64,000 bases of DNA from Acidimicrobiia bacterium (GTDB lineage: Bacteria; Actinomycetota; Acidimicrobiia; Spongiisociales; ZC4RG35): contig CBDCGI010000022.1 in the NCBI GenBank assembly GCA_965216725.1, forward strand, positions 64,438-128,437. Direction: 5' to 3'. Each line of letters opens with the position of its first letter. Positions within the stretch are counted from its first letter, which is position 1. The notes under the pieces are model-generated. The model was not told the origin of the DNA, made no database searches, and saw nothing but the letters and a program-made list of their open reading frames with translations. The position numbers and the translations under genes are program-made. Below are positions 612 to 52,224 of the stretch, in pieces.

Positions 612-1694
612 ATGAGTCTCGAGATCGGGATCGTGGGCCTCCCCAACGTCGGGAAATCGACGTTGTTCAATGCACTCACGGGAGCCACGATCCTTGCCGC
701 CAACTATCCGTTCGCAACTATTGAGCCGAACGTCGGAGTGGTGCCATTGCCCGACCCCCGGCTCGGGGTCCTCGGCAGGTTGTTCGAGTCGGCGCGTGTC
801 GTGCCGGCAACGGTCACTTTCGTCGATATTGCCGGGCTGGTTCGAGGTGCGAGTCAGGGGGAGGGCCTGGGCAACCGATTCCTGGCCAACATTCGCGAGG
901 TTTCGGCGGTGTGTCATGTCGTAAGAGCGTTCAGCTCGCCGGATGTGGCCCACGTGGCTGAGTCGGCCGACCCCGAAGGGGATATCGAGACTGTGGAGAC
1001 GGAGCTCGCGTTGGCAGACTTGCAGACCCTCGACAAGCGTCTTCCCCGGCTGGAGAAGGAAGCCGCTGTGGACCGCTCGCTAGGCCGCGTTGTAGCCACG
1101 CTGGAAGCCGCCAGGGCGGTGGTCGCGTCAGGCGGAATGATCTCCGGATCGCCTCAGTTGGCTGCCGACGTCGCTTCCAACTCCGACCTACGCCTGCTCA
1201 CGGCCAAGCCCATCATCTATGTCTTCAACTGCGACGAGGCCACTTTGGGCGACACCGGCCGCCGTGAGGAGTTGGCCGAAATGGTGGCACCTGCCCGAAG
1301 CGTGTTCCTCGATGCCCAATTGGAAGCCGACCTGGTCGGACTCGACCACGAAGAGCGCTCTGAGCTGCTCGAGTCGGTGGGCCAAACGGAACCTGGGCTG
1401 TTCACTCTCGCCCGCGCTGCCTACGGGACGCTTGGGCTGCAGAGTTTCCTGACGGTCGGTCCGAAGGAGGCTCGAGCATGGACCATCCCCGGCGGAGCCA
1501 CGGCTCTCGAAGCCGCGGCTTTGATACACACCGACTTTGCTAGAGGCTTCATCGCCGCCGAGGTTATCTCCTACGACCAGCTGATTGGGGCGGGATCTTG
1601 GAGCGAGGCACGACGCTCGGGCTTGGTGAGAACTGAGGGGAGGGCCTACCGGATGCAGCCAGGGGATGTAGTGGAGTTCAGGTTCAACGTATGA
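612..1694 (+). CDS. ychF: ribosome-binding ATPase YchF (Obg-family GTPase)
   Basis: N-terminus MSLEIGIVGLPNVGKSTLFNALT carries the G1 P-loop. 360 aa. The TGS-like C-terminus matches YchF. Confidence 0.9.
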   Translation: MSLEIGIVGLPNVGKSTLFNALTGATILAANYPFATIEPNVGVVPLPDPRLGVLGRLFESARVVPATVTFVDIAGLVRGASQGEGLGNRFLANIREVSAVCHVVRAFSSPDVAHVAESADPEGDIETVETELALADLQTLDKRLPRLEKEAAVDRSLGRVVATLEAARAVVASGGMISGSPQLAADVASNSDLRLLTAKPIIYVFNCDEATLGDTGRREELAEMVAPARSVFLDAQLEADLVGLDHEERSELLESVGQTEPGLFTLARAAYGTLGLQSFLTVGPKEARAWTIPGGATALEAAALIHTDFARGFIAAEVISYDQLIGAGSWSEARRSGLVRTEGRAYRMQPGDVVEFRFNV

Positions 1695-1718
1695 GACAGC
1701 CCTACTAGGTTCCCTCCC

Positions 1719-3902: not shown

Positions 3903-3954
3903 CTCCATGGTCGGAGAACTCGTGCTCCAGGCTTATGATGGCAATGCCGTCAAT

Positions 3955-4092
3955 ATCGAGCGGGAGAGATCCGGTCGTTGACCGGGCGCCGAAGGGGCAA
4001 CACCTCCCGGAAACTCTCAGGCATCTGGACCGTTCGATCAGGCAAGCTGGAGGAGACGACAGCTGGGAGGGCAGGAGTCCACAAGGAAGCGC
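3955..4092 (+). promoter_or_regulatory. glycine riboswitch (single aptamer) in the gcvP leader
   Basis: 3961-4035 reads GGAGAGatCc...GGgCGCCGAAGGGGCAAcacctcccggAAaCTCTCAGGCAtctGGACcG. These are the conserved GGAGAG, CGCCGAAGGrGCAA and CTCTCAGGCA..GGAC blocks of the glycine aptamer. An aaggaag RBS sits 7 nt before the gcvP ATG at 4093. No convincing second aptamer. Confidence 0.6.
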
Positions 4093-27328: not shown

Positions 27329-28531
27329 TCATGCCATATCGACCTCGATGAGCTGCTGGGCACGACGCAGCGCAGCGGTGACCTGACCCGGGATCGACGC
27401 TCGGGCGAAGACGAACCCCAGATATCGGTCACCCCATGGCGGAGGTTCGAGGCGATCACCAGGGCGAGCGCTGATCTCGATGCCGGTGACATGCTCTATG
27501 CCGCGAATCACGGCCTCGTTGGCCAGCCCTCGATACGTGCCGGCACGGGGTATCGGGATCATGAGGACACCGCTGGCGGTGTTTTCTCGCTGTAGCTCGG
27601 GTTTGTCCATTCCCAGAGCGTTGCGGAGGATCAATGTTTCCAACGAGGTGTTCATCAATCCGAAGCTGAGACTCCTCGAGCACAGGCCACCTATCGACCT
27701 GGCAGCCACTTCTATGACCTTGGCCCGCCCACCCTCGACCTTGAGCTCGACGTGAACCGGGCCGTGGGTCAGGCCCAGGGCCCTGACTGCAAGGTCGGCC
27801 ACACGCTGCGCTTCGTTGATCGTGGTTGCTTCCAATTCACTGGGTGTCACCAGAATCGTCTCCGGGAACGCGGGGCCGTGGGTGGCATAAGGCTTGTCGA
27901 AGACGGCAAGGGTCGTGAGGGCTCCTCGGCTCACCAGTCCTTCGATTGCGATTTCGGCACCAGGGACAAACTCCTCCAAGAGGAGGGTGGCTTCGTCGCC
28001 CACTATCCCTCGCACCTGTCGGATCGCGGCCGTGAGCTGAGTCGGGTCTTCGACACGGAGCACACCTTGCCCGGCGGACCGATCGGTGGGCTTCACGACG
28101 GCGGGGAAATCGATACCGTGCGGGATCGGATCCCCTGGCGACAACAGCCGGAACCGGGGTTGCGGCACCTCGGCCGAAGCCAGCAATGAACGCTGCGTCG
28201 CCTTGTCCCGGGTGGCTGTCGCCGCGGTCGCTGGGTTTCCGGGTATACCGAGATTGGAGGCTGCAATAGCTGCAGTCACCACGCCGCCATCATCGGCTGC
28301 AACGATCCCGTCAACGTCGACGCGGTCGTTGAGAGCGACGATGTCCATGGCGGCTTGGCCGGGGTCACGACAATCGACCTGGACATAGCCGTCACCCATT
28401 TCAATTGGGGGCGCAACGTCGGACGCCACTATCACGTCGACGTCGAGACTCACCGCGGCCTCGAGGAAGTCCTCGGCGCGGTAGGTGGTGCTGGGCAACA
28501 GCACGACGACTGTGGGCATCGGTTTGGTCAC
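27329..28531 (-). CDS. ATP-grasp domain protein (carboxylate-amine ligase-like), function unknown
   Basis: Central ATP-grasp fold (AVVKPTDRSAGQGV, EEFVPGAEIAIEGL, HVELKV). About 400 aa. No diagnostic substrate motif recognised. Confidence 0.6.
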   Translation of the reverse strand: MTKPMPTVVVLLPSTTYRAEDFLEAAVSLDVDVIVASDVAPPIEMGDGYVQVDCRDPGQAAMDIVALNDRVDVDGIVAADDGGVVTAAIAASNLGIPGNPATAATATRDKATQRSLLASAEVPQPRFRLLSPGDPIPHGIDFPAVVKPTDRSAGQGVLRVEDPTQLTAAIRQVRGIVGDEATLLLEEFVPGAEIAIEGLVSRGALTTLAVFDKPYATHGPAFPETILVTPSELEATTINEAQRVADLAVRALGLTHGPVHVELKVEGGRAKVIEVAARSIGGLCSRSLSFGLMNTSLETLILRNALGMDKPELQRENTASGVLMIPIPRAGTYRGLANEAVIRGIEHVTGIEISARPGDRLEPPPWGDRYLGFVFARASIPGQVTAALRRAQQLIEVDMA

Positions 28532-28555: not shown

Positions 28556-29170
28556 ATGTCTGAATCCACAATTCTCAGCATCGCCCCCGACGCCCTGGAC
28601 ATGATTCGCCAACTACGCGACCAGGAGCCGGGCGACGGCGAGTTCGCGCTTTCGATCGAGGTCACCGGCTTCCGGGGCCCTCAGTTCACCTACGAGCTGG
28701 CGTTTGTCGCCCTGAGCGACAAGAAGGAGGACTGGGTCGAGGAGCGACACCAGGATCTGGCACTGATGTTTCCCCAATCAGATTCGGAGAAACTAGATGG
28801 GGCCTCGCTCGACCTGACCGACCAGGGTCTGGTCATGAACAACCCCAACTCGCCGGACACGCCGCAGATGGCGGCACCGGCCGGAGATTTGGAGGGTCCT
28901 CTGGTTGACCGGGTCCAGCAGGTGATCACCGAGCAGGTAAACCCTGCCATCGCATCCCATGGCGGCGGCGCCGAGTTGGTCTCCATCGACGGCACAATTG
29001 CCTATCTCAGATTGTTTGGAGGCTGTCAGGGTTGCGGTTTGGCCCAGGTGACCCTGAAACAAGGAATCGAGAGAATCGTCCTCGATTCCATCCCTGAGCT
29101 CACCTCAGTTGTCGACGTGACGGACCACGCGTCCGGTACCGACCCCTATTACCAAAGCCAGAAGAAGTAG
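28556..29170 (+). CDS. Fe-S biogenesis protein NfuA-like (degenerate A-type carrier N-domain plus Nfu C-domain)
   Basis: Start re-chosen at MSESTILS. The C-terminal Nfu motif GGCQGCG is present. The N-terminal IscA-like domain lacks the Cys triad, as in NfuA. Confidence 0.75.
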   Translation: MSESTILSIAPDALDMIRQLRDQEPGDGEFALSIEVTGFRGPQFTYELAFVALSDKKEDWVEERHQDLALMFPQSDSEKLDGASLDLTDQGLVMNNPNSPDTPQMAAPAGDLEGPLVDRVQQVITEQVNPAIASHGGGAELVSIDGTIAYLRLFGGCQGCGLAQVTLKQGIERIVLDSIPELTSVVDVTDHASGTDPYYQSQKK

Positions 29171-40310: not shown

Positions 40311-40700
40311 TCAACCGTTTCCCAGAGACACCTCGGCAACCTGGCCGTCACGAATCAGAAAACCGCGGATTTCCCCGTCGGCGGCGATCAGATAGAGCCA
40401 TTCCGGGTCCAGGGCACGCACGACGTCCTCCTCGGAGGGGATGGCGAGACCGTCGGGGTGGGAATGAAAGACACCGCTGAGCGTCCAACCTTGGCTTTCG
40501 GCATGGCGAAAGGCGCCAAAATGCTCGTCTGGGTCGATCGTGTAGGAGGTGGGCGAGGGTCGGCTGTTGGTGAGGAGGTAGGCGAATCGGACGTTGGAAT
40601 CGCCGTCGGAGGCGATCAGGCCGCAGCACTCGTCGGGCGCGCACAAGTCAGCATGGGCGAGGATCGCTTGCCGAATCTGGTCAGGAAGCCGAGGAGGCAC
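40311..40700 (-). CDS. JAMM/MPN+ family zinc isopeptidase (Mec+/CysO-cysteine peptidase-like)
   Basis: 129 aa. Conserved Glu (PDECCG) and JAMM motif HSHPDGLAIPSEED (H-x-H-x7-S-x2-D). Confidence 0.75.
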   Translation of the reverse strand: MPPRLPDQIRQAILAHADLCAPDECCGLIASDGDSNVRFAYLLTNSRPSPTSYTIDPDEHFGAFRHAESQGWTLSGVFHSHPDGLAIPSEEDVVRALDPEWLYLIAADGEIRGFLIRDGQVAEVSLGNG

Positions 40701-41862
40701 GGTCGACGTTCCCCGCGGGCACGCAGCTCTGGTCGTACTCGACGATCCTGGGTGGCCGGTCCGCGTCCGAGCACGCGGGGCAGTTCGGGTCGCGGTCGAT
40801 TTGAACCGTGTTGAACTCCTGCTCGAGGGCGTCGTAAATCAACAGGCGCCCTACCAGCGTGTCACCGATTTCGAGCAGCGCCTTGATGGCCTCCATCGCT
40901 TCTATGGAGCCGATGATTCCGGGTAACACTCCGAGCACGCCTGCCTCTGCGCACGATGGTGCGATCTCGGGAGGAGGGGCCTCAGGGAACAGGCATCGAT
41001 AACAGGGCCCCTGGTAGGGATGAAAGACCGAGACCTGGCCTTCGAACCTGAAGATCGCCCCGTGGACTACCGGGATCTTGAGGTGTAGCGAAGCGTCGTT
41101 GACAAGGTAGCGGGTTGGGAAGTTGTCCCCGCCGTCGACTACGAGGTCGTAGCCGCCCATTATCTCCAAGGCATTGTCGGCCGAGAGCCGGTCGGTGTGA
41201 GTCTCGACCTTGACGTCGGGGTTGAGGGCAGACAAGGTTTCCCGGGCAGATTCGGTCTTGTTCATCCCGACCCGGTCGAGATTGTGCAGGACCTGGCGTT
41301 GCAGGTTGGTCGCGTCAACCACGTCGTAGTCGACGATCCCGATCGTGCCCACACCTGCCGCAGCCAGGTAAAGAGCAGCGGGCGAGCCCAGCCCGCCCGC
41401 TCCCACCAAGAGAACCCTTGAGCCAAGAAGGCGGGTTTGTCCCTCTTCGCCTACCTCAGGCAGCAGGACGTGTCTCGAGTAGCGGGTGCGCTGGTCGGCG
41501 GTCAAGCCCTCATCGGTGGACCATCGCAGGCCTTCTGTCTTCCACTGCTCGAACCCTCCCGCCAGGGACGCCACATCCTCGTATCCCATGGCCTTCAGGG
41601 TTTGCGCAGCAAGCGCTGAGCGGTGCCCGGCCGCACAGTAAGCCACGATCGGCGTGGAGGTGTCGGGTATGACCGTGGCGACATCCCGCTCGATCAAGCC
41701 ACGAGGAATCAATCTGGCTCCGGGTATCGCGCCCTGCGAGTGCTCGTCTGCCTCGCGCACGTCGAGCACCAGGACCTCGTCCATCCGCTGCGACAGCTGT
41801 GTTGGTGTGATCTCTACGATGGCGGCCTTGGCGGCGTCGACAAGCTCGCGGTAGGAAGTCAT
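40681..41862 (-). CDS. rhodanese-ThiF/MoeB E1-like sulfurtransferase/adenylyltransferase (MoeZ-like, reversed domain order)
   Basis: Start re-chosen at MTSYRELV. The N-terminal rhodanese has active-site YCAAGHRS. The MoeB/ThiF domain has the GAGGLGS nucleotide loop and Zn motif CYRC..CPAC. The start overlaps the aceE stop. Confidence 0.8.
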   Translation of the reverse strand: MTSYRELVDAAKAAIVEITPTQLSQRMDEVLVLDVREADEHSQGAIPGARLIPRGLIERDVATVIPDTSTPIVAYCAAGHRSALAAQTLKAMGYEDVASLAGGFEQWKTEGLRWSTDEGLTADQRTRYSRHVLLPEVGEEGQTRLLGSRVLLVGAGGLGSPAALYLAAAGVGTIGIVDYDVVDATNLQRQVLHNLDRVGMNKTESARETLSALNPDVKVETHTDRLSADNALEIMGGYDLVVDGGDNFPTRYLVNDASLHLKIPVVHGAIFRFEGQVSVFHPYQGPCYRCLFPEAPPPEIAPSCAEAGVLGVLPGIIGSIEAMEAIKALLEIGDTLVGRLLIYDALEQEFNTVQIDRDPNCPACSDADRPPRIVEYDQSCVPAGNVDRASSAS

Positions 41863-44582
41863 TGGTGGGCGTGAGCCGGATCGGGGCTGTCGGGGTCGAT
41901 CCCATATCGATTGAGAGCATCGACCACCGCTTCCCTCTTGATCAGTCCGTCTGCCGCCAAAGCCGACAACGTGGTGACCACGATGTTTCCGGCGTCGATC
42001 TCGAAGAACCGGCGAAGAGCTTCCCTGGAGTCCGAGCGGCCAAAGCCATCGGTGCCCAGCGTGTAGTAGCGCTGGGGGATCCACCTGGATATCTGATCCG
42101 GGACGGCCTTCATGAAGTCGGTGACGGCGATCACCGGACCGGTCACTTCCGCAAGTGTTTGGGTGACTCTGGGTGTCCGGCCGGGCTCGTCGGGGTGCAA
42201 CATGTTCCAGCGATCTACCGTCAGTGCCTCTTCACGAAGTCGTTTGTAAGAGGTGGCCGACCACAGCTCGGCCTCTACCCCGTAGTGATCGGCAAGTTCG
42301 CTCGCTGCCTCTCGGGCGGCCAGGTTCGCCGAGCCAGAGAAGAGGATGGCCGGGACGCTGGGCCCGTCACTAGACGCGGGCCGCCATCGGTACAGGCCGT
42401 CGACGATTCCCTCGGCGACACCGTCCGGCCGCTCGGGTTGCGGATAGTTCTCGTTGTAGAGGGTCAGGTAATAAAAGACATCTTCGGGCTCAGGTCCGTA
42501 CATCCGCTCAATGCCGTGTTCGATGATGGTTCCGACCTCGTAGGCAAACGCCGGGTCGTACGCCTCGCACACCGGGACAGTGGAGGCGAGTATCAGGCTG
42601 TGGCCGTCCTGGTGCTGCAGCCCTTCTCCTTGGAGAGTGGTCCGGCCGGCGGTGGCGCCAAGCAGGAATCCACGAGCGCGGGAATCAGCCGCAGACCAGA
42701 TGAGATCGCCCACCCTTTGGAACCCGAACATCGAATAGAAGATGAAGAACGGAACCATGGGGATCCCTCGGGTGGCATATGAAGTCGCGGCGGCGATCCA
42801 TGATGCGAGAGACCCTGCCTCGGTGATTCCCTCCTCGAGAATCTGCCCGTCCTGGCTCTCGGAGTAGGAGAGGAGCATCGAAGCATCGACCGGCTCGTAC
42901 AGCTGGCCCTGAGAGGCGTAGATCTTCAGTTCTCGGAAGAGGGAGTCCATGCCAAAGGTCCTGGCCTCGTCGGGGACGATCGGGACAACATGTGGGCCGA
43001 ATCCTTCGGCGCGCGCCAGGCTGCGGAGCAAGCGGGTGAACGCTGATGTGGTGGAAGCCTCTACTTTGCCGGAGCCTGAATAGACCTCGGCATAGGTCTC
43101 GGTCGAGGGCAGATCGAGCACCGGCGGCCTCACGATCCTGGAGGGAAGCGGGCCGCCCAACTCGTCGCGTCTCTGTCGCAGATACTCGTGCTCGGGGGTG
43201 CCGGGGCCGGGCCGGTAGTAGGGCGGCTCACGATCCCCATGGAGGGAGTCTTCGGGAATCTCCTTCTCGAGATGCAGAGTTGCCCGCAGTTCGAGCAGCT
43301 GCTTGTTGGTCAGCTCTTTGATCTGATGAGTGGCGTTGCGCCCTTCCACATCGGGGCCGAGAGTCCAGCCTTTGATCGTCTTGGCAAGGATCACCGTTGG
43401 CTTGCCGTTGTCCAGCTCGGTCGCCACTTTGTAGGCGGCATAGATCTTTCTGAAGTCGAGGCCTCCCCGACGCAGCGCCCAAACCTCGTCGTCTGTCATG
43501 TGGGAGACCAACTCCTTGGTCCGTGGGTCTTTGCCGAAGAAGTGGTCTCGCACAAAGGCTCCGTCTTCGGCTTTGTAACGCTGGTACTCGCCGTCGACGG
43601 TGGTGTTCATGACGTTGACGAGGGCACCTTCGACGTCTCGGGCGAGGAGTGCGTCCCAGCCGCTTCCCCAGATCACCTTGATGACGTTCCATCCCGCACC
43701 CCGAAACACCGCCTCGAGCTCGGTGATGATCTGTCCATTCCCGCGGACCGGGCCGTCGAGCCGCTGCAGATTGCAGTTGACCACCCAGGTCAGGTTGTCG
43801 AGACGCTCCCTTGACGCCAGGGAGATAGCGCCCAAGGTCTCGGGTTCGTCGGTTTCACCGTCGCCCAGGAAACACCAGATGCGTGAGTTTGAGGTGTCGT
43901 CAATGTCCCGATTGCCCAGGTACTTGTTGAAACGGGCGTGGTAAATCGAGTTGATCGGACCCAGCCCCATCGACACCGTCGGGAACTCCCAGAAATCTGG
44001 CATGAGACGGGGGTGGGGATAGGAGCTGAGGCCATCGTTGCCTATCTCGGCACGGAAATTGTCGAGGTGCTTTTCGTCAAACCTTCCCTCCAGGTAAGCC
44101 CGGGCGTAAATTCCAGGGGCGGCATGCCCCTGGAAATAGACGTGGTCGCCTCCACCGGGAGCATTCTTCCCTCGGAAGAAGTGGTTGAAGCCGATCTCAT
44201 AGAGGGTGGCCGATGAAGCGAAAGTGGAAAGGTGGCCGCCGATGCCCTTTTCCCGGTGGTTGGCCTTCACCACCATCACTGCGGCGTTCCACCTGATGAA
44301 GCGACGGATTCGCCTCTCGATGTGCTCGTCACCGGGAAATTCAGGCTCTTCCTCCGGGGGGATCGTGTTGATATACGGTGTGGTGACACCGCCGGGGATG
44401 CCCAGGTTCGTCTCGTGGGCCCGCTCGATCAGTTTGGCGACCAGGTATCGGGCCCGGTCGTGGCCCTGTTCGGCGGCGACCGCGTCAAGTGACTCGATCC
44501 ATTCCGCAGTCTCTACGGGATCGTTGTCGGGTAGCTGATTGACGTACTCGTCGCCGAGGGTTTGCCCGAGGTCGCCTGACAT
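41859..44582 (-). CDS. aceE: pyruvate dehydrogenase E1 component (homodimeric AceE type)
   Basis: Start re-chosen at MSGDLGQTLGDEYVN. About 908 aa. The ThDP-binding GDG..N region is present. N- and C-terminal regions align to AceE. Confidence 0.9.
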   Translation of the reverse strand: MSGDLGQTLGDEYVNQLPDNDPVETAEWIESLDAVAAEQGHDRARYLVAKLIERAHETNLGIPGGVTTPYINTIPPEEEPEFPGDEHIERRIRRFIRWNAAVMVVKANHREKGIGGHLSTFASSATLYEIGFNHFFRGKNAPGGGDHVYFQGHAAPGIYARAYLEGRFDEKHLDNFRAEIGNDGLSSYPHPRLMPDFWEFPTVSMGLGPINSIYHARFNKYLGNRDIDDTSNSRIWCFLGDGETDEPETLGAISLASRERLDNLTWVVNCNLQRLDGPVRGNGQIITELEAVFRGAGWNVIKVIWGSGWDALLARDVEGALVNVMNTTVDGEYQRYKAEDGAFVRDHFFGKDPRTKELVSHMTDDEVWALRRGGLDFRKIYAAYKVATELDNGKPTVILAKTIKGWTLGPDVEGRNATHQIKELTNKQLLELRATLHLEKEIPEDSLHGDREPPYYRPGPGTPEHEYLRQRRDELGGPLPSRIVRPPVLDLPSTETYAEVYSGSGKVEASTTSAFTRLLRSLARAEGFGPHVVPIVPDEARTFGMDSLFRELKIYASQGQLYEPVDASMLLSYSESQDGQILEEGITEAGSLASWIAAATSYATRGIPMVPFFIFYSMFGFQRVGDLIWSAADSRARGFLLGATAGRTTLQGEGLQHQDGHSLILASTVPVCEAYDPAFAYEVGTIIEHGIERMYGPEPEDVFYYLTLYNENYPQPERPDGVAEGIVDGLYRWRPASSDGPSVPAILFSGSANLAAREAASELADHYGVEAELWSATSYKRLREEALTVDRWNMLHPDEPGRTPRVTQTLAEVTGPVIAVTDFMKAVPDQISRWIPQRYYTLGTDGFGRSDSREALRRFFEIDAGNIVVTTLSALAADGLIKREAVVDALNRYGIDPDSPDPAHAHQ

Positions 44583-44595
44583 GTGTCGAAGCCTA

Positions 44596-44617
44596 ATCCC
44601 CACCCCGACATGGGGAT
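44596..44617. promoter_or_regulatory. perfect 7-bp inverted repeat ATCCCCA-n8-TGGGGAT in the aceE / radical SAM divergent intergenic region (candidate operator)
   Basis: Seen directly in the sequence, 14 bp upstream of the aceE start codon on the opposite strand. Confidence 0.3.
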
Positions 44618-44679
44618 TTGGGCGCACCCTCGGTTCCATGGGCCATCAGCCCGTGAATTGGCCTGCTGCGCTGGGTTAG

Positions 44680-46089
44680 GTGCCGATTCCCCGGGCTTAC
44701 ACTCGTCGGGTGCGGATCCTTCTCATCTCAACGTATGAGCTCGGGCGGCAACCCGTTCACGTTGCCTCCCCGGCGGCAGCGCTGTCCGCAGCCGGACACC
44801 GGGTCGAGGTGGTGGATCTTGCGGTCGAGCAATTGACCTGGCATCTCCTTGGCTGGTGCGACGCGGTCGCGATATCGGTGCCGATGCATACCGCAATGAG
44901 ACTCGCTGTCACGACCGCCAGCCAGATCAAAGTGGAGCGACCCCAGGTTCCAGTTGCCTTCTACGGCCTTTATGCCGGTGTCGGGGCCGAGGAGTCTTTG
45001 GGCGGGGTGGCCGACAGACTGATCGTGGGTGAATATGAGGCTGGGCTTGTTTCTTGGGCCGCTGACCTCAGTCGTGGACTGACTCACGACATTCAGCGAA
45101 CGACCTTCTTGATTCCCGACAGAGGTGGCCTCCCCGGCCTCGAGAGCTATGCCCGTCTGGAATGGGAGGGCGAGGCGCGACTGGTTGGCGCCGTCGAGGC
45201 GTCGCACGGGTGTCGCCACCGTTGCCGACATTGCCCGATTCCTGTGGTGTACGACGGTAGGTGGCGACCGGTGGGTCACGAGGTCGTTCTCGATGACATC
45301 GACCAGCTTGCGAGTGCGGGCGCACAGCACATCACGTTTGCGGATCCGGATTTCTTGAATGCCCCCCGTTACTCGATGGACGTGCTGCGTGCCGCTCATG
45401 ACGAACATCCGGATCTGACCTTTGACGTGACGGTGAAGGTCTCCCATATCCTCGACCACCGCGATTTGCTCCCGGTCATGGCAGATCTCGGAGTGCTTTT
45501 CATTGTCAGCGCATTCGAGACCGTCGATGAGCCTTCCCTGAAGATCCTGGACAAAGGGCACTCAAGCCGCGGTATGAGCCAGGCAACAAGTCTCGTATTG
45601 GACGCAGGTATGTGGATTCGCCCGACCTGGCTTCCCTTCTTTCCCTGGACCGAGCCTCAGCACGTGGCCGGGATCGCCGAGTTCATCGACGATCACCGGC
45701 TGTGGGAAGCCACCGAGCCGGTGCAGCTGGCCCTGAGGCTTCTGGTTCCCGAAGGCTCCCTTCTCGAGAAGCACCCCGAAGCACGCCGGCACCTCATGGC
45801 ATATGAGCCTGAGGAGCTGACGTGGACGTGGGAGTTCGCCAACTCGGACACAGCGCTGATCCACAAGCAATTGGACGAGCTCGCCACCGAAGCAGCGGAA
45901 TGCGGGGAGGAGGCGATGCGCACCCTCTCTCGAATGCGACGGGTCCTGTTCTCTGGGAGGGCGACCGCGAACGACTCGATGCCTGCAGGTGACCGAGTTC
46001 CCCGTCTCACCGAGAGCTGGTTCTGTTGCGCCGAGCCACGACCCTCTCAACTGGTGTCGATAGGAAGCAAAGATCTACAGTCGAGTTGA
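44680..46089 (+). CDS. CUAEP/CCAEP-tail radical SAM protein with N-terminal B12-binding-like domain
   Basis: Radical SAM cluster motif CRHRCRHC (CxxxCxxC). The N-terminal Rossmann-like domain resembles cobalamin-binding domains of class B radical SAM enzymes. The C-terminal tail is ..ESWFCCAEPRPSQ. Alternative GTG start at 44710. Confidence 0.7.
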   Translation: MPIPRAYTRRVRILLISTYELGRQPVHVASPAAALSAAGHRVEVVDLAVEQLTWHLLGWCDAVAISVPMHTAMRLAVTTASQIKVERPQVPVAFYGLYAGVGAEESLGGVADRLIVGEYEAGLVSWAADLSRGLTHDIQRTTFLIPDRGGLPGLESYARLEWEGEARLVGAVEASHGCRHRCRHCPIPVVYDGRWRPVGHEVVLDDIDQLASAGAQHITFADPDFLNAPRYSMDVLRAAHDEHPDLTFDVTVKVSHILDHRDLLPVMADLGVLFIVSAFETVDEPSLKILDKGHSSRGMSQATSLVLDAGMWIRPTWLPFFPWTEPQHVAGIAEFIDDHRLWEATEPVQLALRLLVPEGSLLEKHPEARRHLMAYEPEELTWTWEFANSDTALIHKQLDELATEAAECGEEAMRTLSRMRRVLFSGRATANDSMPAGDRVPRLTESWFCCAEPRPSQLVSIGSKDLQSS

Positions 46090-46106
46090 CGGATCGAGGA
46101 GATCGC

Positions 46107-47039
46107 TTGACTGCAGTGCTCACAGCTGAAGGCCTGAAAAAGACATTCGGCGACCTGGTGGCCGTGAACGACGTCAGCTTCTCAATCGACCGCGGAGAGA
46201 CATTCGGGCTGCTTGGGCCCAACGGGGCCGGGAAGACAACTTCGATCTCGATGGTGGCCGGGCTTCTCGAATCCGACGCGGGGACGGTGACCGTTGCCGG
46301 CGAGGAGATCACCACTTCATCGGTGAAAGGCAAAGGGGCCATTGGTCTGGTCCCTCAAGACCTTGCGATCTACCCAGATCTGACGGCTCGTGAGAATCTT
46401 CGCTTTTTCGGTCGCCTGTATGGGATTGACCAACTCGACGATCGTGTGGATGACGTTTTGGGTGTGATCGGGCTCAGCGACCGGGCCGGCGATCTCACCA
46501 AAGAGTTCAGCGGTGGCATGAAGCGGCGTTTGAACATCGGGATCGGCCTCTTGCACCGGCCCGAGCTGCTGATTCTGGACGAGCCGACCGTGGGCGTGGA
46601 TCCTCAATCTCGCAACGCGATCCTGGAGTCGGTTGAGGCTCTTAGTGTCGAAGGCATGGCCGTGCTGTACACGACCCACTACATGGAAGAAGCCGAGCGC
46701 CTCTGCGACCGGGTCGCAATAATCGATGAAGGCCAGGTGAAGGCCGAAGGGACACGTCGAGAGTTGGTGTCCATGGTCGGGGGTAAGGACACCGTGACCA
46801 TGGCCGGAAGCGGCAACCTGGCCTCTGCTGCGGAATCTATTCGGTCGATGGCGGATGTGGCCGGTGCTTCGGTGTCTGACCATCAGATAGAGGTCCTGGC
46901 GACGAATGCATCGTCGCTGCTTCCCGGGATGTTGACCAAGGCCTCATCGGCGGGAGCCTCGGTCTCCAGCGTCGATATCAAGGAGCCCAATCTGGAGGCT
47001 GTCTTCCTCCATCTGACCGGCAAAGCGTTGCGGGACTGA
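46107..47039 (+). CDS. ABC transporter ATP-binding protein
   Basis: Walker A GPNGAGKTT, signature LSGGMKRR, Walker B LLILDEPT. TTG start 5 nt after a GAGGAG RBS. Confidence 0.85.
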   Translation: MTAVLTAEGLKKTFGDLVAVNDVSFSIDRGETFGLLGPNGAGKTTSISMVAGLLESDAGTVTVAGEEITTSSVKGKGAIGLVPQDLAIYPDLTARENLRFFGRLYGIDQLDDRVDDVLGVIGLSDRAGDLTKEFSGGMKRRLNIGIGLLHRPELLILDEPTVGVDPQSRNAILESVEALSVEGMAVLYTTHYMEEAERLCDRVAIIDEGQVKAEGTRRELVSMVGGKDTVTMAGSGNLASAAESIRSMADVAGASVSDHQIEVLATNASSLLPGMLTKASSAGASVSSVDIKEPNLEAVFLHLTGKALRD

Positions 47040-47041
47040 AC

Positions 47042-48226
47042 GTGTCGGCCGCCGGCAAGATCGCAGGAAAGGACCTGCGGCTCAGGGTTCGGGACCGCTC
47101 GGTATTCATCCTCGCCATCATCGTGCCGCTGGGCCTGTCACTCATCTTTGACGCTGTGTTTGGCTCGGCGTTCGAGGGCATCGACCTCAACTTGGAGTAC
47201 GGGGTTGTGGACGAGGACGAGAGCGAGGTCTCAACTGCCTTTGTTGACACTCTGAGCCAGATCGAGGCCGACGGGCTCTTCGCTCTCACCGTCTATGAGG
47301 ACCGCGACTCGGCGATTGCCGACGTTGAAAACTCGACCCAGAACGCAGTGTTCTTGCTGACCGAGGGTGTCGGGTCCGGTGTTGCCGGCGGTGCCCCGGG
47401 CGTCATCGAAATCGTAGGCGACATCGATGCGCCAACTTCCACAGAGATCGCCACCTCGATCGCGGAGCAGTTTGCCTCAGGGGTGGAGACCGCACAGCTG
47501 TCGGTGTCGACGGCGGCCATCCTCAGTGGAGAGGCACCTGGTCCGGACCAGATAGAGCAGTGGACGGATTCTGCAATTGCCGCCGGCCAACCCTTCGCGC
47601 TGGTCGACGAGTCAGCCGCCACGCGCCAGTTGGACGGCGCCACCTACTTCTCGGCTGGGATGGCCGTCTTCTTTCTCTTCTTCACGGTCCAGTTCGGAGT
47701 GTCAGGCCTTCTCGAGGAAGAGAGAGAGGGAACCCTTGCCCGGCTCATGGCAGCACCGATACCTCGCCTCGCAGTGGTTCTCGGCAAGGCAATCCTCGCC
47801 TTCGTGATCGGAGTTGTGGCCACCACGGTCCTGATCGTGGCGACGACGATCCTCGTCGGAGCCGACTGGGGTGCCCCTCTCGGCGTCGCCATGTTGGTGG
47901 TCGCCGGAGTCTTGTGTGCCATCGGAGTCATGGGCCTGGTGGCGTCCGTGGCCAATTCTCCCGAAGGCGCAGGAAATGTGGGTGCGATCATCGCAGTGAT
48001 CCTGGGCATGCTCGGTGGCGTCTTCTTCCCGATTGGGAGCGGAGACGATTTCCTGTCCAAGCTCCAATTCATCACTCCACATGCCTGGTTCATGAGAGGC
48101 CTGGGGAATCTGGCCGACGGCGCTCCATGGACCGATGCTCTCCCGGCGGTGGCCGCGCTTCTCCTCTTCGCCGCCGTGACCGGGTTTGCCTCTTGGGTGT
48201 TTCTCAGGAGGCGGTACCGCGGATGA
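47042..48226 (+). CDS. ABC-2 family transporter permease
   Basis: 394 aa. An N-terminal TM segment, a large extracytoplasmic loop, then five TM segments, which is the ABC-2 topology. GTG start 3 nt after the ATPase stop. Confidence 0.7.
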   Translation: MSAAGKIAGKDLRLRVRDRSVFILAIIVPLGLSLIFDAVFGSAFEGIDLNLEYGVVDEDESEVSTAFVDTLSQIEADGLFALTVYEDRDSAIADVENSTQNAVFLLTEGVGSGVAGGAPGVIEIVGDIDAPTSTEIATSIAEQFASGVETAQLSVSTAAILSGEAPGPDQIEQWTDSAIAAGQPFALVDESAATRQLDGATYFSAGMAVFFLFFTVQFGVSGLLEEEREGTLARLMAAPIPRLAVVLGKAILAFVIGVVATTVLIVATTILVGADWGAPLGVAMLVVAGVLCAIGVMGLVASVANSPEGAGNVGAIIAVILGMLGGVFFPIGSGDDFLSKLQFITPHAWFMRGLGNLADGAPWTDALPAVAALLLFAAVTGFASWVFLRRRYRG

Positions 48227-49386
48227 AGGCGCTTGCCATTGGAGGGGTCAACCTGCGGAGAATGCTTCGAGAGCGGTCCAATGTGTTCTTCGTTTTCATA
48301 CTCCCTATCGGCATCATCTTCTTGGTCGGAGCTCAGTTCGGCGGCGGCGTCGTGCCCCAGATTGGGATTTCGCAAGGTGATGAAGGGGCACTGGCGTCGG
48401 CGATAGTGGAGAAGATCGCAGCCGAGGACGGGGTCGAGGTGGTGACGTACGACGACCGTGACAGGCTGCTCTCTGCTGTAGAAAGAGGATCGGTACAGGC
48501 GGGCACGCTGCTGCCAGCCGGGATGGATCAGGCGGCCGCAGCCGGCGAAATCGTGGAGATCGGCTTCGTGGCTCGACCCGACGGAATCGGACCACAGCTC
48601 CAGGCAGTGGTGGGCTCGGCCGTTTCTAGGGTGATGACACCGGTCGCCGCAGCTCAATTTGCGTCCGTCGAGATCGGAGCTGATTTCGAGGAAGCTTTCG
48701 TGGTGTCCACCGACACGGCCGAAGACCTCGGACGGATCGGCGTGGAGACCACCACAGTCGGTGAAGAGCTCTTTCCCTCGAGTCTTGGCAGGTTCGACCT
48801 CGGAGCGGCCCAACAGCTGGTGTTGTTCATCTTCCTGACTGCGCTGTCCGGATCTGCAGCTCTGATCCTCACCCGCCAGTTGGGGATTTCTACCCGCATG
48901 CTCTCCACGCCGACCGCGGTGGGGACGATTGTCGTGGGCGAGGGAACGGGCCGTTTCGCGGTCGCTCTGGCACAGGGGGTCTACATAGTCGTCGCCACGT
49001 TGCTCCTGTTCCGGGTGAATTGGGGGGATCCCATTGGAGCCGTGGCGATCGTCTTGTTGTTCTCCGCGGTGGGTGCCGGTGCAGGGCTGCTCGCCGGAAC
49101 CCTGTTTCGCAATGATCAACAGGCCGGCGGCATCAGCATCATGCTCGGTCTCGGGTTGGCCGCCTTGGGGGGAGCGATGCTCCCGGCCGACCTCTTCTCC
49201 GACACCATGCAGCGAGTTGCGCATATCACCCCCCATGCCTGGGCCCTCGATGGATTTGCCGAATTGGTGCGGCATAACGGCACGATTCTCGACATCCTCC
49301 CCGAGTTGGGCGTCCTTGCCCTGTATGCGATCGTGCTTTTCTCGATCGCCGGCTGGCGATTGCGGAAGGTGCTCACCTCACCGTGA
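48223..49386 (+). CDS. ABC-2 family transporter permease (second subunit)
   Basis: Start re-chosen at MKALAIGGVNLRR; the ATGA overlaps the upstream stop. Same topology as the preceding permease. Confidence 0.7.
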   Translation: MKALAIGGVNLRRMLRERSNVFFVFILPIGIIFLVGAQFGGGVVPQIGISQGDEGALASAIVEKIAAEDGVEVVTYDDRDRLLSAVERGSVQAGTLLPAGMDQAAAAGEIVEIGFVARPDGIGPQLQAVVGSAVSRVMTPVAAAQFASVEIGADFEEAFVVSTDTAEDLGRIGVETTTVGEELFPSSLGRFDLGAAQQLVLFIFLTALSGSAALILTRQLGISTRMLSTPTAVGTIVVGEGTGRFAVALAQGVYIVVATLLLFRVNWGDPIGAVAIVLLFSAVGAGAGLLAGTLFRNDQQAGGISIMLGLGLAALGGAMLPADLFSDTMQRVAHITPHAWALDGFAELVRHNGTILDILPELGVLALYAIVLFSIAGWRLRKVLTSP

Positions 49387-49956
49387 TTGAATGAGCCTAT
49401 GACTCAACGAGCGCCGGATTCCCCGGACATGTCGAACGAGGATGTGGCCAAAGGTTGCCGGAGGATCTTCGGCTTTGCCGCGTTAGCGTGGGTTCTCTTC
49501 GGTTTCGTAGCGGCCTTCTTCCGGGGAAACGAAACGGACTTTTTGGATTTCTTGATCCCCATCGCAGTCTTCGGCTTTGTCGCAGTCATGGTTGCCCGGG
49601 CTAGACGTCGTCGTTCACAGTCCGAGGACGAGGGGATGTTGGGGGACACCACCCAAAGCAGGACACCGCCACGAGCCGAGACTCGCACAAGCCCGAGACC
49701 CGTGTCACGAGAGCCGTCGGAACCCAGGCCCCTCGACTCGCCGGAACCCGCCAGTCGGCCGACGTCCGAGACACCCGAAGGCTCTCCACGTCGTCCGCCG
49801 CCCCGCAGCCTCGAGGAGGCTCTCGAAGAGCTCGGCTCCGGGCCTCCCGATGACGTTGCAGACGCTCCGCCTTTAGAAGCCCGGCCGATGAGCTCCGAAG
49901 AGATGATCGAAGATGCGAGGCGGAAGTGGGGATCCGGGAGAGATCAGGCTCCCTGA
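49387..49956 (+). CDS. membrane protein with Pro/Ser/Arg-rich disordered C-terminal tail
   Basis: Two TM segments near the N-terminus, then low-complexity sequence. Only codon-usage-level coding support. Confidence 0.4.
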   Translation: MNEPMTQRAPDSPDMSNEDVAKGCRRIFGFAALAWVLFGFVAAFFRGNETDFLDFLIPIAVFGFVAVMVARARRRRSQSEDEGMLGDTTQSRTPPRAETRTSPRPVSREPSEPRPLDSPEPASRPTSETPEGSPRRPPPRSLEEALEELGSGPPDDVADAPPLEARPMSSEEMIEDARRKWGSGRDQAP

Positions 49957-52224
49957 TCAGCTGGCCCGGGAAGCCAAGGCCCTTGCCGTCCTCACCTCGC
50001 TCGCGAATTCCTTGCGAGCAATGGTCACACCGTCCGCTTCGTCCAACAGCCCACGGTTCGCGGCCAGGCCGAGAGCGGACTTGAACAAGACCTGACTGGC
50101 GCTTTCGCCGGAGATCACTTTCCCCTCGATTCGATACATCCGGGCCCGGGCCAGACACGCCTTGAGGAACTGGGCCTCCTCGTAGGGTCCCGCCAATGCC
50201 TCGAGTTCGTCTCCTACCACCTGGTAGGCGTCGAGCAGCGGCAGCAAAGCCCAATGGGCAATCGACGTCTTCAGCTGGGCGATCACGGCCTCTGGCCCTT
50301 GCCGGCTGAGCGTCTCATCCCACTCGGGGACGTCGATTGCAAGGTCGACATGTGCGGCGTCTACGAATGCATCTTTGCTCGCAAAGAAGAACTCGAACTT
50401 CAACAGGTCTCTCAGCGCGAGTACGGCGCGACGGAAGGAGTGCTCCTCTCCCGGCCCCGGGCCGAGCGAATACAGGGCCATTTCGCCCACAGCCCGAGGG
50501 ACGAAGAAATGCAGGATCATGTTTCGGTAATAGGAGATCTTGATCATTTGGTCTTCGTCGAGCCAGTACACCTTCCTTCCTAGCGCCTCGTGGCTCGACA
50601 CATAGCCATTGGCACGTAGCGGCTCGATCACCGCCGTGGAGACGTCGGTGTCGGTGTAGTCGAGGGTTTCGGTGAGGGTGACCCCGCGCTGTCCCAAGAA
50701 AGTGGCCAGATCGGAGCATCTTGCCCCGAGCTCGCTGGCCGTGCGTGCGATCCCTTTCTCTTCGAGGAGCGCGATGCTCATCAGAGCGGTTGGAGTGACT
50801 GGAGTCGCCTGACCGATGCGGTGCATCACTTCGAAAGCGACCTTCTGCAGGTCGATCTCTCCAGATTGATCGCCGCCATTCTTGGCCATGTGAGACGACA
50901 TCGCCACGGGCTCTCCGAACTCGATATATATGTCGCCGTAGCGACGTCTCAACGACCTCACGGCCTTGAGCAGCCAGGTGACCGACTCTTTCTCCTTGGA
51001 CTTGCCCTGGGCCTCCCTGGCATAGTCGGGGACGTCCTGGATCATGTCGTAGGCGATGGACACCGGGACCAATTGGACGTCGTCGGCAACGTCCCTCTGA
51101 TAGGAGTCGGCGACGTAGCTGAGCATCCCCATTCTCGGCGGCAACAGCTTCCCAGACCGTGATCGGCCGCCCTCCAGATAGAACTCGAGCGGGAATCGGT
51201 TCTCAATCAGGTAGTCGAGGTAGGCCTGGAGAACTGTCTTGTACAACCTGTTGCCTCGGAAGCTCCTTCTGATGAAGAACACGCCGGACCGGCGAATTAG
51301 GGGCCCGACGGGGAAGAAATTGAGGTTGATGCCACCCGCCGTGTGGTTGGGCGGCAAGTCGTTCTCCCACAACGTGAACTGCAGGCTCAGCCTGTCTAGG
51401 TTCGAGCGATGAGAAGGCAGGAACACCACCGGGTGGTCAGCGCTTAGAGCGGCCACTTCGGTCACCTTGGCGGGCGAGTATCTGATCGCCCCGTATCCCT
51501 GGCGATAGAGCTTCTGAATGAGACCGGCCGTTATGTCGATGAAGTATGGGGAGTGCGTGGCCGCAATTTCTTTCAGGTACCTGGCGGCCTTGGCGTGTGC
51601 CGTGGCGCGGTTGATGCCCTCCTCTTCGGCGACCGCATCGATAGCGTCAATCAGCTCGCGTCTGGTCAGCATCGATTCGGAGACGAATCGGGGGATCTTG
51701 TAGCGGTGCCCCTGGAGTTGTCGCTCGTAATGGTCCAGCGAGCGCCAAGCACGTCGAGTCACGTAGCTCTCGATGGTGTCGAGTCTCTCCGATTCGGCAT
51801 GGTCGTTGACCATCTCGGACGCGAAAGCGCCACGCGCTGCCAGCAGACGCACTCGCTTGGGGCGGAGATAGCGGATGATTCTGGCCCTGATTGCGTAGGG
51901 ATCACGCGGGTCGCCAGGCTTGAAGAGGTCGCTGAGGCGAACCAGCCGTCGTCCTTGCCGGTTGGCGGGTGGCATCCACACCACTCGAACCGGGATGAAG
52001 AACGGGTCATCGTCGGCTGCGAGGGCCGAACTCAGGGCCTCGTTGTCTCCCCGTCGTCGGCGGCGAGACGACTTGACGCGTATTGCGGCCACGTCACGTC
52101 CGGCTTCCTTCCGGAGCCAGGATCGGAGCATCCTCTCCTCGAAACCGGTTCCGGCGTCTATGAGATAGATCGCCCTGGAGCCCTGCGGAGCACGCAGCAC
52201 AGTGGTCTTGGATCGTGTGGGCAC
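49957..52224 (-). CDS. plsB: glycerol-3-phosphate 1-O-acyltransferase (PlsB family)
   Basis: 755 aa with the HxxxxD acyltransferase motif (PSHRSNLD) and a long C-terminal helical domain as in PlsB. GTG start. Confidence 0.8.
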   Translation of the reverse strand: MPTRSKTTVLRAPQGSRAIYLIDAGTGFEERMLRSWLRKEAGRDVAAIRVKSSRRRRRGDNEALSSALAADDDPFFIPVRVVWMPPANRQGRRLVRLSDLFKPGDPRDPYAIRARIIRYLRPKRVRLLAARGAFASEMVNDHAESERLDTIESYVTRRAWRSLDHYERQLQGHRYKIPRFVSESMLTRRELIDAIDAVAEEEGINRATAHAKAARYLKEIAATHSPYFIDITAGLIQKLYRQGYGAIRYSPAKVTEVAALSADHPVVFLPSHRSNLDRLSLQFTLWENDLPPNHTAGGINLNFFPVGPLIRRSGVFFIRRSFRGNRLYKTVLQAYLDYLIENRFPLEFYLEGGRSRSGKLLPPRMGMLSYVADSYQRDVADDVQLVPVSIAYDMIQDVPDYAREAQGKSKEKESVTWLLKAVRSLRRRYGDIYIEFGEPVAMSSHMAKNGGDQSGEIDLQKVAFEVMHRIGQATPVTPTALMSIALLEEKGIARTASELGARCSDLATFLGQRGVTLTETLDYTDTDVSTAVIEPLRANGYVSSHEALGRKVYWLDEDQMIKISYYRNMILHFFVPRAVGEMALYSLGPGPGEEHSFRRAVLALRDLLKFEFFFASKDAFVDAAHVDLAIDVPEWDETLSRQGPEAVIAQLKTSIAHWALLPLLDAYQVVGDELEALAGPYEEAQFLKACLARARMYRIEGKVISGESASQVLFKSALGLAANRGLLDEADGVTIARKEFASEVRTARALASRAS

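Follow-up and report, generated by a model that had tools for sequence, protein, structure and literature searches.

The DNA considered here, referred to throughout as the window, is a stretch of 64,000 nt from contig CBDCGI010000022.1 of an Acidimicrobiia bacterium (positions 64,438 to 128,437 of the forward strand). The feature of interest is a gene for a predicted radical S-adenosylmethionine (SAM) enzyme that ends in a Cys-Cys tail, lies divergent from aceE and is followed head to tail by the genes of an ATP-binding cassette (ABC) exporter. The gene and its two diagnostic motifs are as follows.

44680..46089, + strand: radical SAM enzyme, CUAEP/CCAEP-tail family, Cys-Cys version; 469 aa, GTG start
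45211..45234, + strand: CRHRCRHC (residues 178-185, from the translation), the CX3CX2C motif for the radical SAM [4Fe-4S] cluster
46018..46038, + strand: tail motif W-F-C-C-A-E-P (residues 447-453, from the translation and a reading of the DNA)

An initial annotation, made from the letters of the sequence, had described the 469-aa reading frame with its CRHRCRHC motif, and both are borne out by the translation and by a match to the radical SAM core (Pfam PF04055 Radical_SAM, 43 bits against a gathering score of 29.5). The true start may be 30 nt downstream, at GTG 44710, since many homologues begin as does the 459-aa product made from there (MRILLISTYELG); the two starts are equally plausible. 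When the protein was searched against the NCBIfam profiles, the best match was to NF040546, the CUAEP/CCAEP-tail family (473.7 bits, E-value 5.7e-142), and it covers profile positions 1-466 of 468 while missing the curated cutoff of 500 bits by 26 bits. That cutoff is an annotation threshold and no biological feature. Four Acidimicrobiia relatives rescored on the same model give 473, 487, 506 and 508 bits, so that two of the four pass, and NCBI names one of them as a member of the family; members from the Acidobacteriota, the Chloroflexota and an unassigned metagenome representative score 620-725, and a genuine ArsL reaches only 345 bits. As the Acidimicrobiia clade straddles the 500-bit threshold, we read the gene as encoding a divergent Acidimicrobiia member of the CUAEP/CCAEP-tail family, borderline by score, and the family assignment first proposed from the tail thus holds over the full length of the profile. 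The family is sizeable, with 305 representatives at 50 % clustering matching the window protein at an E-value of 1e-30 or better. The only paper found to name it, by Haft (bioRxiv 10.1101/2022.07.06.499078), calls it uncharacterized and also describes CU motifs as rare and as common to mercury-handling proteins as well. Our literature search found no paper characterizing it, in agreement with the earlier statement that no function has been demonstrated.

The second-best NCBIfam match is to ArsL (NF040542, 250 bits against a cutoff of 450, which is thus not reached), and the window protein is 31 % identical to an ArsL-type protein over 403 residues (E-value 2e-61); by these comparisons ArsL is the sister family of the CUAEP/CCAEP-tail family. 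The two share their domain order and carry a Cys-rich C-terminal tail at the equivalent place. ArsL cleaves SAM to methylthioadenosine (MTA) and a 3-amino-3-carboxypropyl (ACP) radical, and its RCCLKC tail holds no cluster, binds As(III), and is needed for formation of the C-As bond while being dispensable for cleavage of SAM (10.1101/2024.02.01.577332; 10.64898/2026.04.29.721666). No other CX3CX2C enzyme is so far known to generate that radical (10.64898/2026.04.29.721666), and an ArsL variant with the tail cut to a vicinal CC ('MCCA') is the most active on a methylarsenic substrate (PMC13598754). There are also clear differences. The ArsL tail has three As(III)-binding cysteines, whereas the window tail, ESWFCCAEPRPSQ, has two thiols and no third Cys; unlike in ArsL, no arsenic genes of the arsM/arsQ type were seen beside the window radical SAM gene; and Nfu, YggX and amino-acid ligases, all of which recur in the family described here, have not been reported as associates of ArsL. 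We found no paper linking ArsL with selenocysteine (Sec).

An AlphaFold2 model of the protein, built with 63 sequences, has a pLDDT of 92.9 and a pTM of 0.91, and predicts an architecture of an N-terminal Rossmann-like domain followed by a radical SAM barrel. The best fold matches found by Foldseek are OxsB, AprD4, TsrM, MgmA and MiaB. AprD4 (6fd2) aligns with a TM-score of 0.65 normalized on the query and 0.67 on the target, and OxsB (5ul3) with an E-value of 5e-17; both have the same succession of Rossmann-like domain and barrel, but sequence identity is only 11-14 %, OxsB binds cobalamin, and AprD4 has no bound cobalamin and no Cys-Cys tail. No solved structure of a close relative was found, the sole sequence match being to ELP3 at an E-value of 1.5e-3. 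The initial annotation had likened the N-terminal domain to those that bind cobalamin; the Rossmann fold is retained in the model, but the match to the B12-binding domain PF02310 (26.2 bits) falls below its gathering score of 32.1. Dependence on cobalamin was accordingly rejected, given the subthreshold domain and nearest characterized relatives that are free of cobalamin: a 2026 review describes AprD4 and ArsL homologues as having a Rossmann-like domain and binding no cobalamin (PMC12931638). In the 63-sequence alignment the only invariant cysteines are C178, C182, C185 and C449, and since there is no second conserved set, an auxiliary cluster is unlikely.

The tail that gives the family its name was correctly recognized at the outset. 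The segment LTESWFCCAEP occupies residues 443-453 and lies 16 residues before the stop, the protein ending ..PRLTESWFCCAEPRPSQLVSIGSKDLQSS, and the Cys pair at 46024-46029 is encoded by TGT (C449) and TGC (C450). In the 63-sequence alignment E445, W447 and C449 are invariant, the tail as a whole keeping the form E-x-W-[FY]-C-[C/U]-A-E-P throughout, and WFCCAEP conforms to the pattern C-[C/U]-A-E-P preceded by W-[FY]. The window protein thus resembles the NF040546 family in its CX3CX2C motif, its Rossmann-like N-terminal domain and the placing of W-F-C-C-A-E-P at the same positions, and departs from it in having Arg instead of the usual Thr after AEP and, relative to most sampled members, Cys-Cys in place of Cys-Sec. 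All 78 readable loci of the Acidimicrobiia type have L[TS]ESWFCCAEP, a count to be read with the knowledge that ESWFCCAE was itself a search pattern of the scan.

The tails of other lineages were read as DNA at 89 loci, of which 82 were readable. At 71 of these a TGA stands right after W[FY]C and the frame continues AEP[T/L/V]..Q, and at the remaining 11 the second tail position is TGC or TGT; the metagenome scan patterns used for these lineages left the tail out, so the count is not circular. Sec therefore replaces the second Cys of the pair (the equivalent of C450), and not the first as had been stated earlier. CCAEP is present in 42 of the best 150 representatives at 50 % identity, and the gene calls of another 37 stop at ..E-x-W-[FY]-C, corresponding to residue 449. 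Because the frame continues past the TGA in so many loci, the truncated public calls represent unannotated selenoproteins. We note that most public gene calls of the family end at the Cys before an in-frame TGA (loci L081-L169; for example L081 8001-9374 and L087 6001-7371). A second, terminal Cys-Cys follows CCAEP in some Acidimicrobiia homologues, those of L067, L069 and L075 (..DTCC, ..GDCC and ..PGCC), and recalls the terminal CC of HgcB and SaoC (Haft, 10.1101/2022.07.06.499078).

The presence of Sec at this position in most readable relatives is as expected of a catalytic or ligand-binding residue, in line with the ArsL-like role of the tail proposed below. A rival reading would make the protein a canonical 5'-deoxyadenosyl radical enzyme with a small-molecule substrate, comparable to the dehydratases or reductases of the AprD4 type, with the Cys-Cys or Cys-Sec tail serving as a hydrogen-atom or electron donor that thiol systems re-reduce. 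Comparable C-terminal redox tails are found in thioredoxin reductase and ribonucleotide reductase. Sec commonly takes the place of Cys at redox-active sites, OxsB, AprD4 and TsrM have the nearest folds, thioredoxin-like genes occur as neighbours (Trx-NHL in L067, L073 and L079; AhpC/Redoxin in L085), and ArsL stands alone to date among CX3CX2C enzymes in its ACP chemistry, all of which favour such an enzyme. Nevertheless, the closest characterized relative by sequence is ArsL at 31 %, as against 13-14 % for AprD4 in the fold match, and the position of the tail equals that of the substrate-binding tail of ArsL; we consider a canonical mechanism unlikely.

Four genes follow the radical SAM gene on the same strand.

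46107..47039, + strand: ABC transporter ATPase, DrrA-like, 310 aa (TIGR01188 drrA 279.9 bits, cutoff 312; PF00005 110.8 bits)
47042..48226, + strand: ABC-2 permease 1, 394 aa (PF12698 ABC2_membrane_3 115 bits; PF01061 79 bits)
48223..49386, + strand: ABC-2 permease 2, 387 aa (PF12698 97.8 bits; PF01061 59 bits)
49387..49956, + strand: small membrane protein of at most 189 aa: two transmembrane (TM) helices, Arg cluster, disordered Pro-rich tail (hydropathy, codon-position GC)

Reading of the junctions, together with the Pfam matches, confirms both the spacings of 17, 2 and -4 nt and the ATPase and two permeases of the initial annotation. The TGA of the radical SAM gene is followed by 17 nt that include a GAGGAG Shine-Dalgarno sequence, and the ATPase start (TTG 46107) comes 5 nt after it; the ATPase TGA is separated by 2 nt (AC) from the permease 1 start, GTG 47042; the permease genes overlap in ATGA at 48223-48226 (-4 nt); and the permease 2 TGA directly abuts the TTG of the small-protein gene (0 nt), whose stop in turn abuts that of a convergent gene for a PlsB-like acyltransferase. 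A 608-aa open reading frame (ORF) at 47560-49386 (+) in the mechanical list is the permease 2 frame extended through permease 1, the real start being ATG 48223. The small protein, also as described earlier, has hydrophobic helices at about residues 26-45 and 51-69 and then a tail rich in Pro, Ser, Arg and Glu, and it matches no family in NCBIfam or Pfam. Promoter and terminator scans of 44400-50300 gave nothing above shuffled expectation, with no terminator at the gene junctions. From the head-to-tail packing of the radical SAM gene, the exporter genes and the small membrane protein gene, the five are probably expressed as one transcript.

With an ABC ATPase and ABC-2 membrane subunits, the window genes have the composition of an ABC-2 exporter, and they resemble exporters of the DrrAB/NodIJ/YbhFSR type in combining a DrrA-like ATPase with two PF12698-type permeases, each with a large loop after TM helix 1. 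They differ in that every score on a curated equivalog model is under its cutoff, and in having a heterodimeric permease pair followed by a clade-specific small 2-TM protein. Permease 1 has a weak SagH/DrrB/NodJ match, and the SagH-like matches of the two permeases (E-values 7e-22 and 9e-14) are far below the cutoff. These matches, and the succession of a radical SAM gene and an ABC exporter, which is a common layout for ribosomally synthesized and post-translationally modified peptides (RiPPs), are the points in favour of a maturase acting on a short, unannotated peptide that the ABC-2 system would export. The junctions of 17, 2, -4 and 0 nt leave no room for a precursor gene, however, and the sole spacer, the 97 nt upstream of the radical SAM gene, is not conserved, and an alpha/beta-hydrolase gene takes its place in 58 relatives. 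Moreover, the protein has no SPASM, twitch or RiPP recognition element match and no extra conserved Cys that could serve an auxiliary cluster, no conserved small ORF was present among the neighbour clusters (in a census with a floor of 80 aa), and the partners of the family are a ligase and iron-sulfur carriers. Identification as a RiPP maturase was therefore rejected, and we regard it as highly improbable.

The conservation of the exporter was followed in a sample of 80 loci of the Acidimicrobiia type, 75 of them informative for the ABC trio. The common gene order is MoeZ-like, aceE(-), alpha/beta hydrolase(-), radical SAM(+), ABC ATPase, permease 1, permease 2, small ORF, plsB(-). The trio follows the radical SAM gene directly at 50 of the 75 loci and is displaced by one to three inserted genes at seven more, so that it is syntenic at 57 overall; at the other 18 it is absent, with plsB next at 12 and other contexts at six. 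The insertion in L056 consists of genes for OsmC, a pyridoxal-phosphate enzyme of Cys/Met metabolism and a CoA-binding protein, and in L063, L065-L067, L069 and L073 an inserted gene for an ArsR-type helix-turn-helix regulator immediately precedes the ATPase gene. A 2-TM ORF of the same layout (GRxxRRR and then a Pro-rich tail) follows permease 2 at about 25 related loci, and probably at up to nine others; its sequence shows hardly any conservation, and the deeper clade lacks it. Several of the 'MFD' bins (L001, L003, L007, L008, L011, L014, L016 and others) are titled Gammaproteobacteria or Acidobacteriota and carry a radical SAM protein about 60 % identical, with the order MoeZ-like, aceE, hydrolase, radical SAM, ABC, plsB as in the Acidimicrobiia; these taxon labels look unreliable.

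Outside this group, 47 loci are well flanked, with at least 1.5 kb on both sides of the radical SAM gene, and none of the 47 has permeases of the window type. On the 89 loci from other lineages we reject the ABC-2 exporter as a family-wide partner; it is, as far as gene order tells, a lineage-specific neighbour that is tightly packed in the window and neither universal nor obligatory. The dedicated modification-and-export module of the initial annotation is thus consistent with the tight packing and with the synteny among close relatives, but does not extend across the family.

On its other side the radical SAM gene is divergent from aceE, as had been noted, in an arrangement that includes one further feature.

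44592..44621: imperfect inverted repeat CCTAATCCCCA-N8-TGGGGATTTGG in the aceE/radical SAM spacer, with no demonstrated role

The aceE product matches TIGR00759 with 1332 bits, and with its likely start at 44582 the spacer is 97 nt long (44583-44679). In 58 related loci (compared: L002-L060) an alpha/beta-hydrolase gene encoding about 290 aa lies between the two genes, and it is because this gene is missing in the window that aceE abuts the radical SAM gene directly. The inverted repeat had been put forward as a perfect palindromic operator. In fact 10 of its 11 positions are complementary, with 8 perfect base pairs and an 8-nt spacer, and an inverted repeat of at least 8 bp with a spacer of no more than 14 nt arises in 1.9 % of shuffled versions of the 97-nt spacer and, when the window is cut into tiles of that length, in 2.6 % of them. 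A scan of the regions upstream of the gene at approximately 70 related loci recovered neither half-site, and no comparable repeat is present among the 44 of these regions that were inspected. As the repeat is imperfect, has a chance expectation of about 2 % and is not conserved in relatives, the operator was rejected. Rfam models matched no riboswitch or other known RNA near the operon; across the whole window they matched once, to a glycine riboswitch aptamer (RF00504) at 3951-4042 (+), with 67.7 bits and an E-value of 6e-12, and there are no tRNAs in the window. Just downstream of aceE, at 40681-41874 (-), lies a gene whose product, from our reading of its sequence, is MoeZ-like, an adenylyltransferase of the ThiF/MoeB type that also has a rhodanese domain. 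Many related loci share the gene in synteny, and with it a further gene for sulfur transfer lies close to the radical SAM gene.

More general associations emerge when the neighbours of the family are compared across phyla. Among the 47 well-flanked loci, and within 1.5 kb of the radical SAM gene, Nfu is encoded at 15, YggX at 16 and either of the two at 31; an ATP-grasp ligase is encoded at 18, and at least one of the three at 34. When the neighbour ORFs were clustered independently of annotation, the ligase came out on top (19 loci), ahead of a divergent formyltransferase-like protein (14), YggX (13), Nfu (12), enoyl-CoA hydratases (9 and 6), DUF169 (7), an RND pump (6) and an ArsB/CitMHS-like permease (5). 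The genes occur in no fewer than four different orders, so the link to the ligase, Nfu and YggX does not reflect a single inherited arrangement. In the Acidobacteriota a gene for a Nfu_N+NifU protein of about 197 aa lies right after the radical SAM gene in five of five loci whose other neighbours differ; L084 has a row of A-type carrier, Mrp/ApbC, DUF971, radical SAM, Nfu, DUF169 and aconitase genes; a YggX (Iron_traffic) gene overlaps the radical SAM start in a Ktedonobacterales locus; and a clade of the Sec type has the order SSF or PTR2 transporter, radical SAM, ATP-grasp ligase (ATPgrasp_N, ATP-grasp_4, LAL_C2) and convergent YggX. Taken together, these comparisons identify L-amino-acid-ligase-type ATP-grasp proteins and the Nfu/YggX iron-sulfur proteins as the predicted cross-phylum partners of the family. 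This differs from the window lineage, in which the gene adjoins aceE and the ABC-2 exporter. The window nonetheless encodes likely counterparts of both, as a divergent pair 16 kb upstream of the radical SAM gene.

27329..28531, - strand: L-amino-acid-ligase-type ATP-grasp protein, 400 aa, a putative functional partner (Pfam ATPgrasp_N, ATP-grasp_4, LAL_C2)
28565..29170, + strand: NfuA-like iron-sulfur carrier, 201 aa, a putative cluster supplier (TIGR03341 NfuA 94 bits, below cutoff; PF01106 NifU 72.8 bits)

Compared with the ligases that adjoin the radical SAM gene in other phyla, the window ligase is 35-44 % identical, with E-values down to 2e-75. Its closest solved relative is the L-amino acid ligase BL00235 (3vot, E-value 6e-28), with BacD more distant, and the characterized L-amino acid ligases (BL00235, BacD, DdaF) are altogether remote, with 35 bits for the window protein on the BacD model, whose cutoff is 850. 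In the Acidimicrobiia loci L067, L073 and L079 this ligase(-)/NfuA(+) pair recurs 4.5-5 kb upstream of the radical SAM gene, and only genes for a thioredoxin-NHL protein and a cysteine-desulfurase-like protein (TIGR01976) intervene; the latter gene overlaps the radical SAM start in L067 and is directly upstream in L069, L073 and L079. One Acidimicrobiia subclade has in contiguity ligase, NfuA, thioredoxin-NHL, cysteine-desulfurase-like, radical SAM, ArsR-type regulator and ABC trio genes.

Two fusion proteins were found. Representative P0260 (850 aa, GCA_004366215.1, locus L170) is a ligase fused to a radical SAM protein with the tail WFCCAAPTS, and a divergent NifU gene adjoins it. Representative P0127 (695 aa; JGI 3300047160, an 8306-nt contig, gene 1295-3382) consists of a radical SAM protein (WYCCAEPTERQ), a Pro-rich linker and a MerB organomercurial-lyase domain (E-value 1.2e-14) in which a C-x-x-D motif is retained; 3.7 kb downstream there is a second MerB gene. 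This fusion hints at organometallic chemistry and is a single observation; beyond P0127, no other MerB homologue was found near the radical SAM gene in the window or the 170 loci.

Transporters of other kinds recur in other clades. An RND pump (OEP/MFP/AcrB) is encoded directly after the radical SAM gene in the L153/L136/L161 clade, a DrrA-like ATPase and a 514-aa ABC-2 permease that are not orthologous to those of the window follow the Sec-type gene of L121, and MFS (ATG22-like) genes flank Nfu in Blastocatellia. With efflux pumps of unrelated families thus beside the gene in other clades, a small molecule that is made and then exported is a viable reading; the recurrence is suggestive and not decisive, transporters being common. 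Of the two kinds of substrate offered in the initial annotation, a small molecule or a short peptide, the former therefore stands as viable and a RiPP peptide is unlikely. We note also that one clade, comprising L146 (211-1527) and four loci related to it, encodes an ArsB/CitMHS-type permease (PF02040, E-value 1.5e-55) and a universal stress protein about 2 kb upstream of the YggX-radical SAM pair. Immediately upstream of the ligase-radical SAM-Nfu set of L086 (1-4415) there are EgtB-like genes (DinB_2 + FGE-sulfatase), a pyridine-nucleotide disulfide oxidoreductase gene and an AIRS/AIRS_C (SelD/ThiL-like) gene, which could form a thio- or selenoneine-type cluster or be there by coincidence.

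The chain of events that we tentatively favour, and to which as a whole we attach low confidence, builds on the analogy with ArsL. The radical SAM enzyme would cleave SAM reductively with its [4Fe-4S] cluster, as ArsL does and with no participation of cobalamin, and by homology the products would perhaps be the ACP radical and MTA rather than a 5'-deoxyadenosyl radical; cleavage by the window enzyme at the C-gamma-S bond may be proposed only from its 31 % identity to ArsL. The radical would then add to a soft heteroatom, whether a sulfur or selenium species or a metalloid, carried into the active site by the flexible Cys-Cys (elsewhere Cys-Sec) tail, and it is the equivalent placing of the window tail and the As(III)-binding tail of ArsL that supports this step by analogy. 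The amino-acid-like product would be joined to another amino acid by the ATP-grasp ligase, NfuA (YggX in other lineages) would supply or protect the cluster of the enzyme, and the final product would leave the cell via a lineage-specific pump, here the ABC-2 system.

Several observations weigh against this proposal. The family is known from sequence alone, and the regiochemistry of SAM cleavage is not readable from a sequence; the tail of the window protein offers two thiols for the three that bind As(III) in ArsL; and no arsM, arsenic-resistance or selenium-utilization genes were seen beside the radical SAM gene. The ligase and NfuA genes of the window are 16 kb away, so that their link to the enzyme is here by comparison only, and the two fusions, ligase to radical SAM and radical SAM to MerB, are each a single observation. 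As for export, 18 of the 75 informative Acidimicrobiia loci lack the ABC trio and all 47 of the outside ones lack window-type permeases, and where the ABC genes follow an ArsR-type regulator of their own the exporter may be an autonomous neighbour. The compared loci are, furthermore, phylogenetically non-independent. Lastly, Nfu and YggX are housekeeping genes and the surroundings are those of the core genome (aceE, plsB, aconitase, dnaK), which fit a housekeeping role better than a specialized metabolite pathway.

Such a role would have the enzyme act on a protein, a cofactor or the iron-sulfur machinery, for example in a modification or repair step for aerobes, with its redox-active Cys-Cys or Cys-Sec tail working as a sulfur/selenium relay or an electron shuttle and with the adjacent ABC-2 genes as bystanders, inherited with the Acidimicrobiia gene order. 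The Nfu or YggX genes adjacent in 31 of the 47 outside loci, the row of genes in L084, the cysteine-desulfurase-like gene in L067, L069, L073 and L079, the core-gene surroundings, including the MoeZ-like sulfurtransferase, and the loci in which the ABC trio is absent or has its own regulator are all consistent with it. Speaking against it, the L-amino-acid-ligase-type partner, even fused to the radical SAM protein, points to a free amino acid as substrate, several families of transporter are found repeatedly next to the gene, and the junctions in the window are very tight and include a Shine-Dalgarno sequence. A housekeeping function is the main rival, hardly less probable than the ArsL-based chain.

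Taken alone, the window yields a modest result: the enzyme is a divergent member of a family that already has a name, the exporter next to it is lineage-specific, and nothing is categorically new. The wider comparison adds that the nearest sister family of ArsL is much larger than ArsL itself and that most of its sampled members are selenoproteins, with Sec at the second tail position; that in the Acidimicrobiia it occurs in a Cys-only version with a co-packed exporter; and that it travels with an amino-acid ligase (once as a fusion) and with Nfu/YggX, not with one fixed exporter. At its broadest, the ArsL-based reading would make the CUAEP/CCAEP-tail enzymes a second class of non-canonical radical SAM enzymes similar to ArsL, widespread in soil Acidobacteriota, Acidimicrobiia and Chloroflexota, that forge a C-Se, C-S or C-metalloid bond on an atom held by the tail, the new amino acid passing into a peptide made by the ligase and then to lineage-specific export while Nfu/YggX keep the cluster alive in aerobes; we offer this as speculation that is quite improbable in its entirety. 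The comparative findings make the family a good target for biochemistry, for which they supply concrete reagents and partner proteins to begin with, and the Cys-Cys form removes the need to express a selenoprotein.

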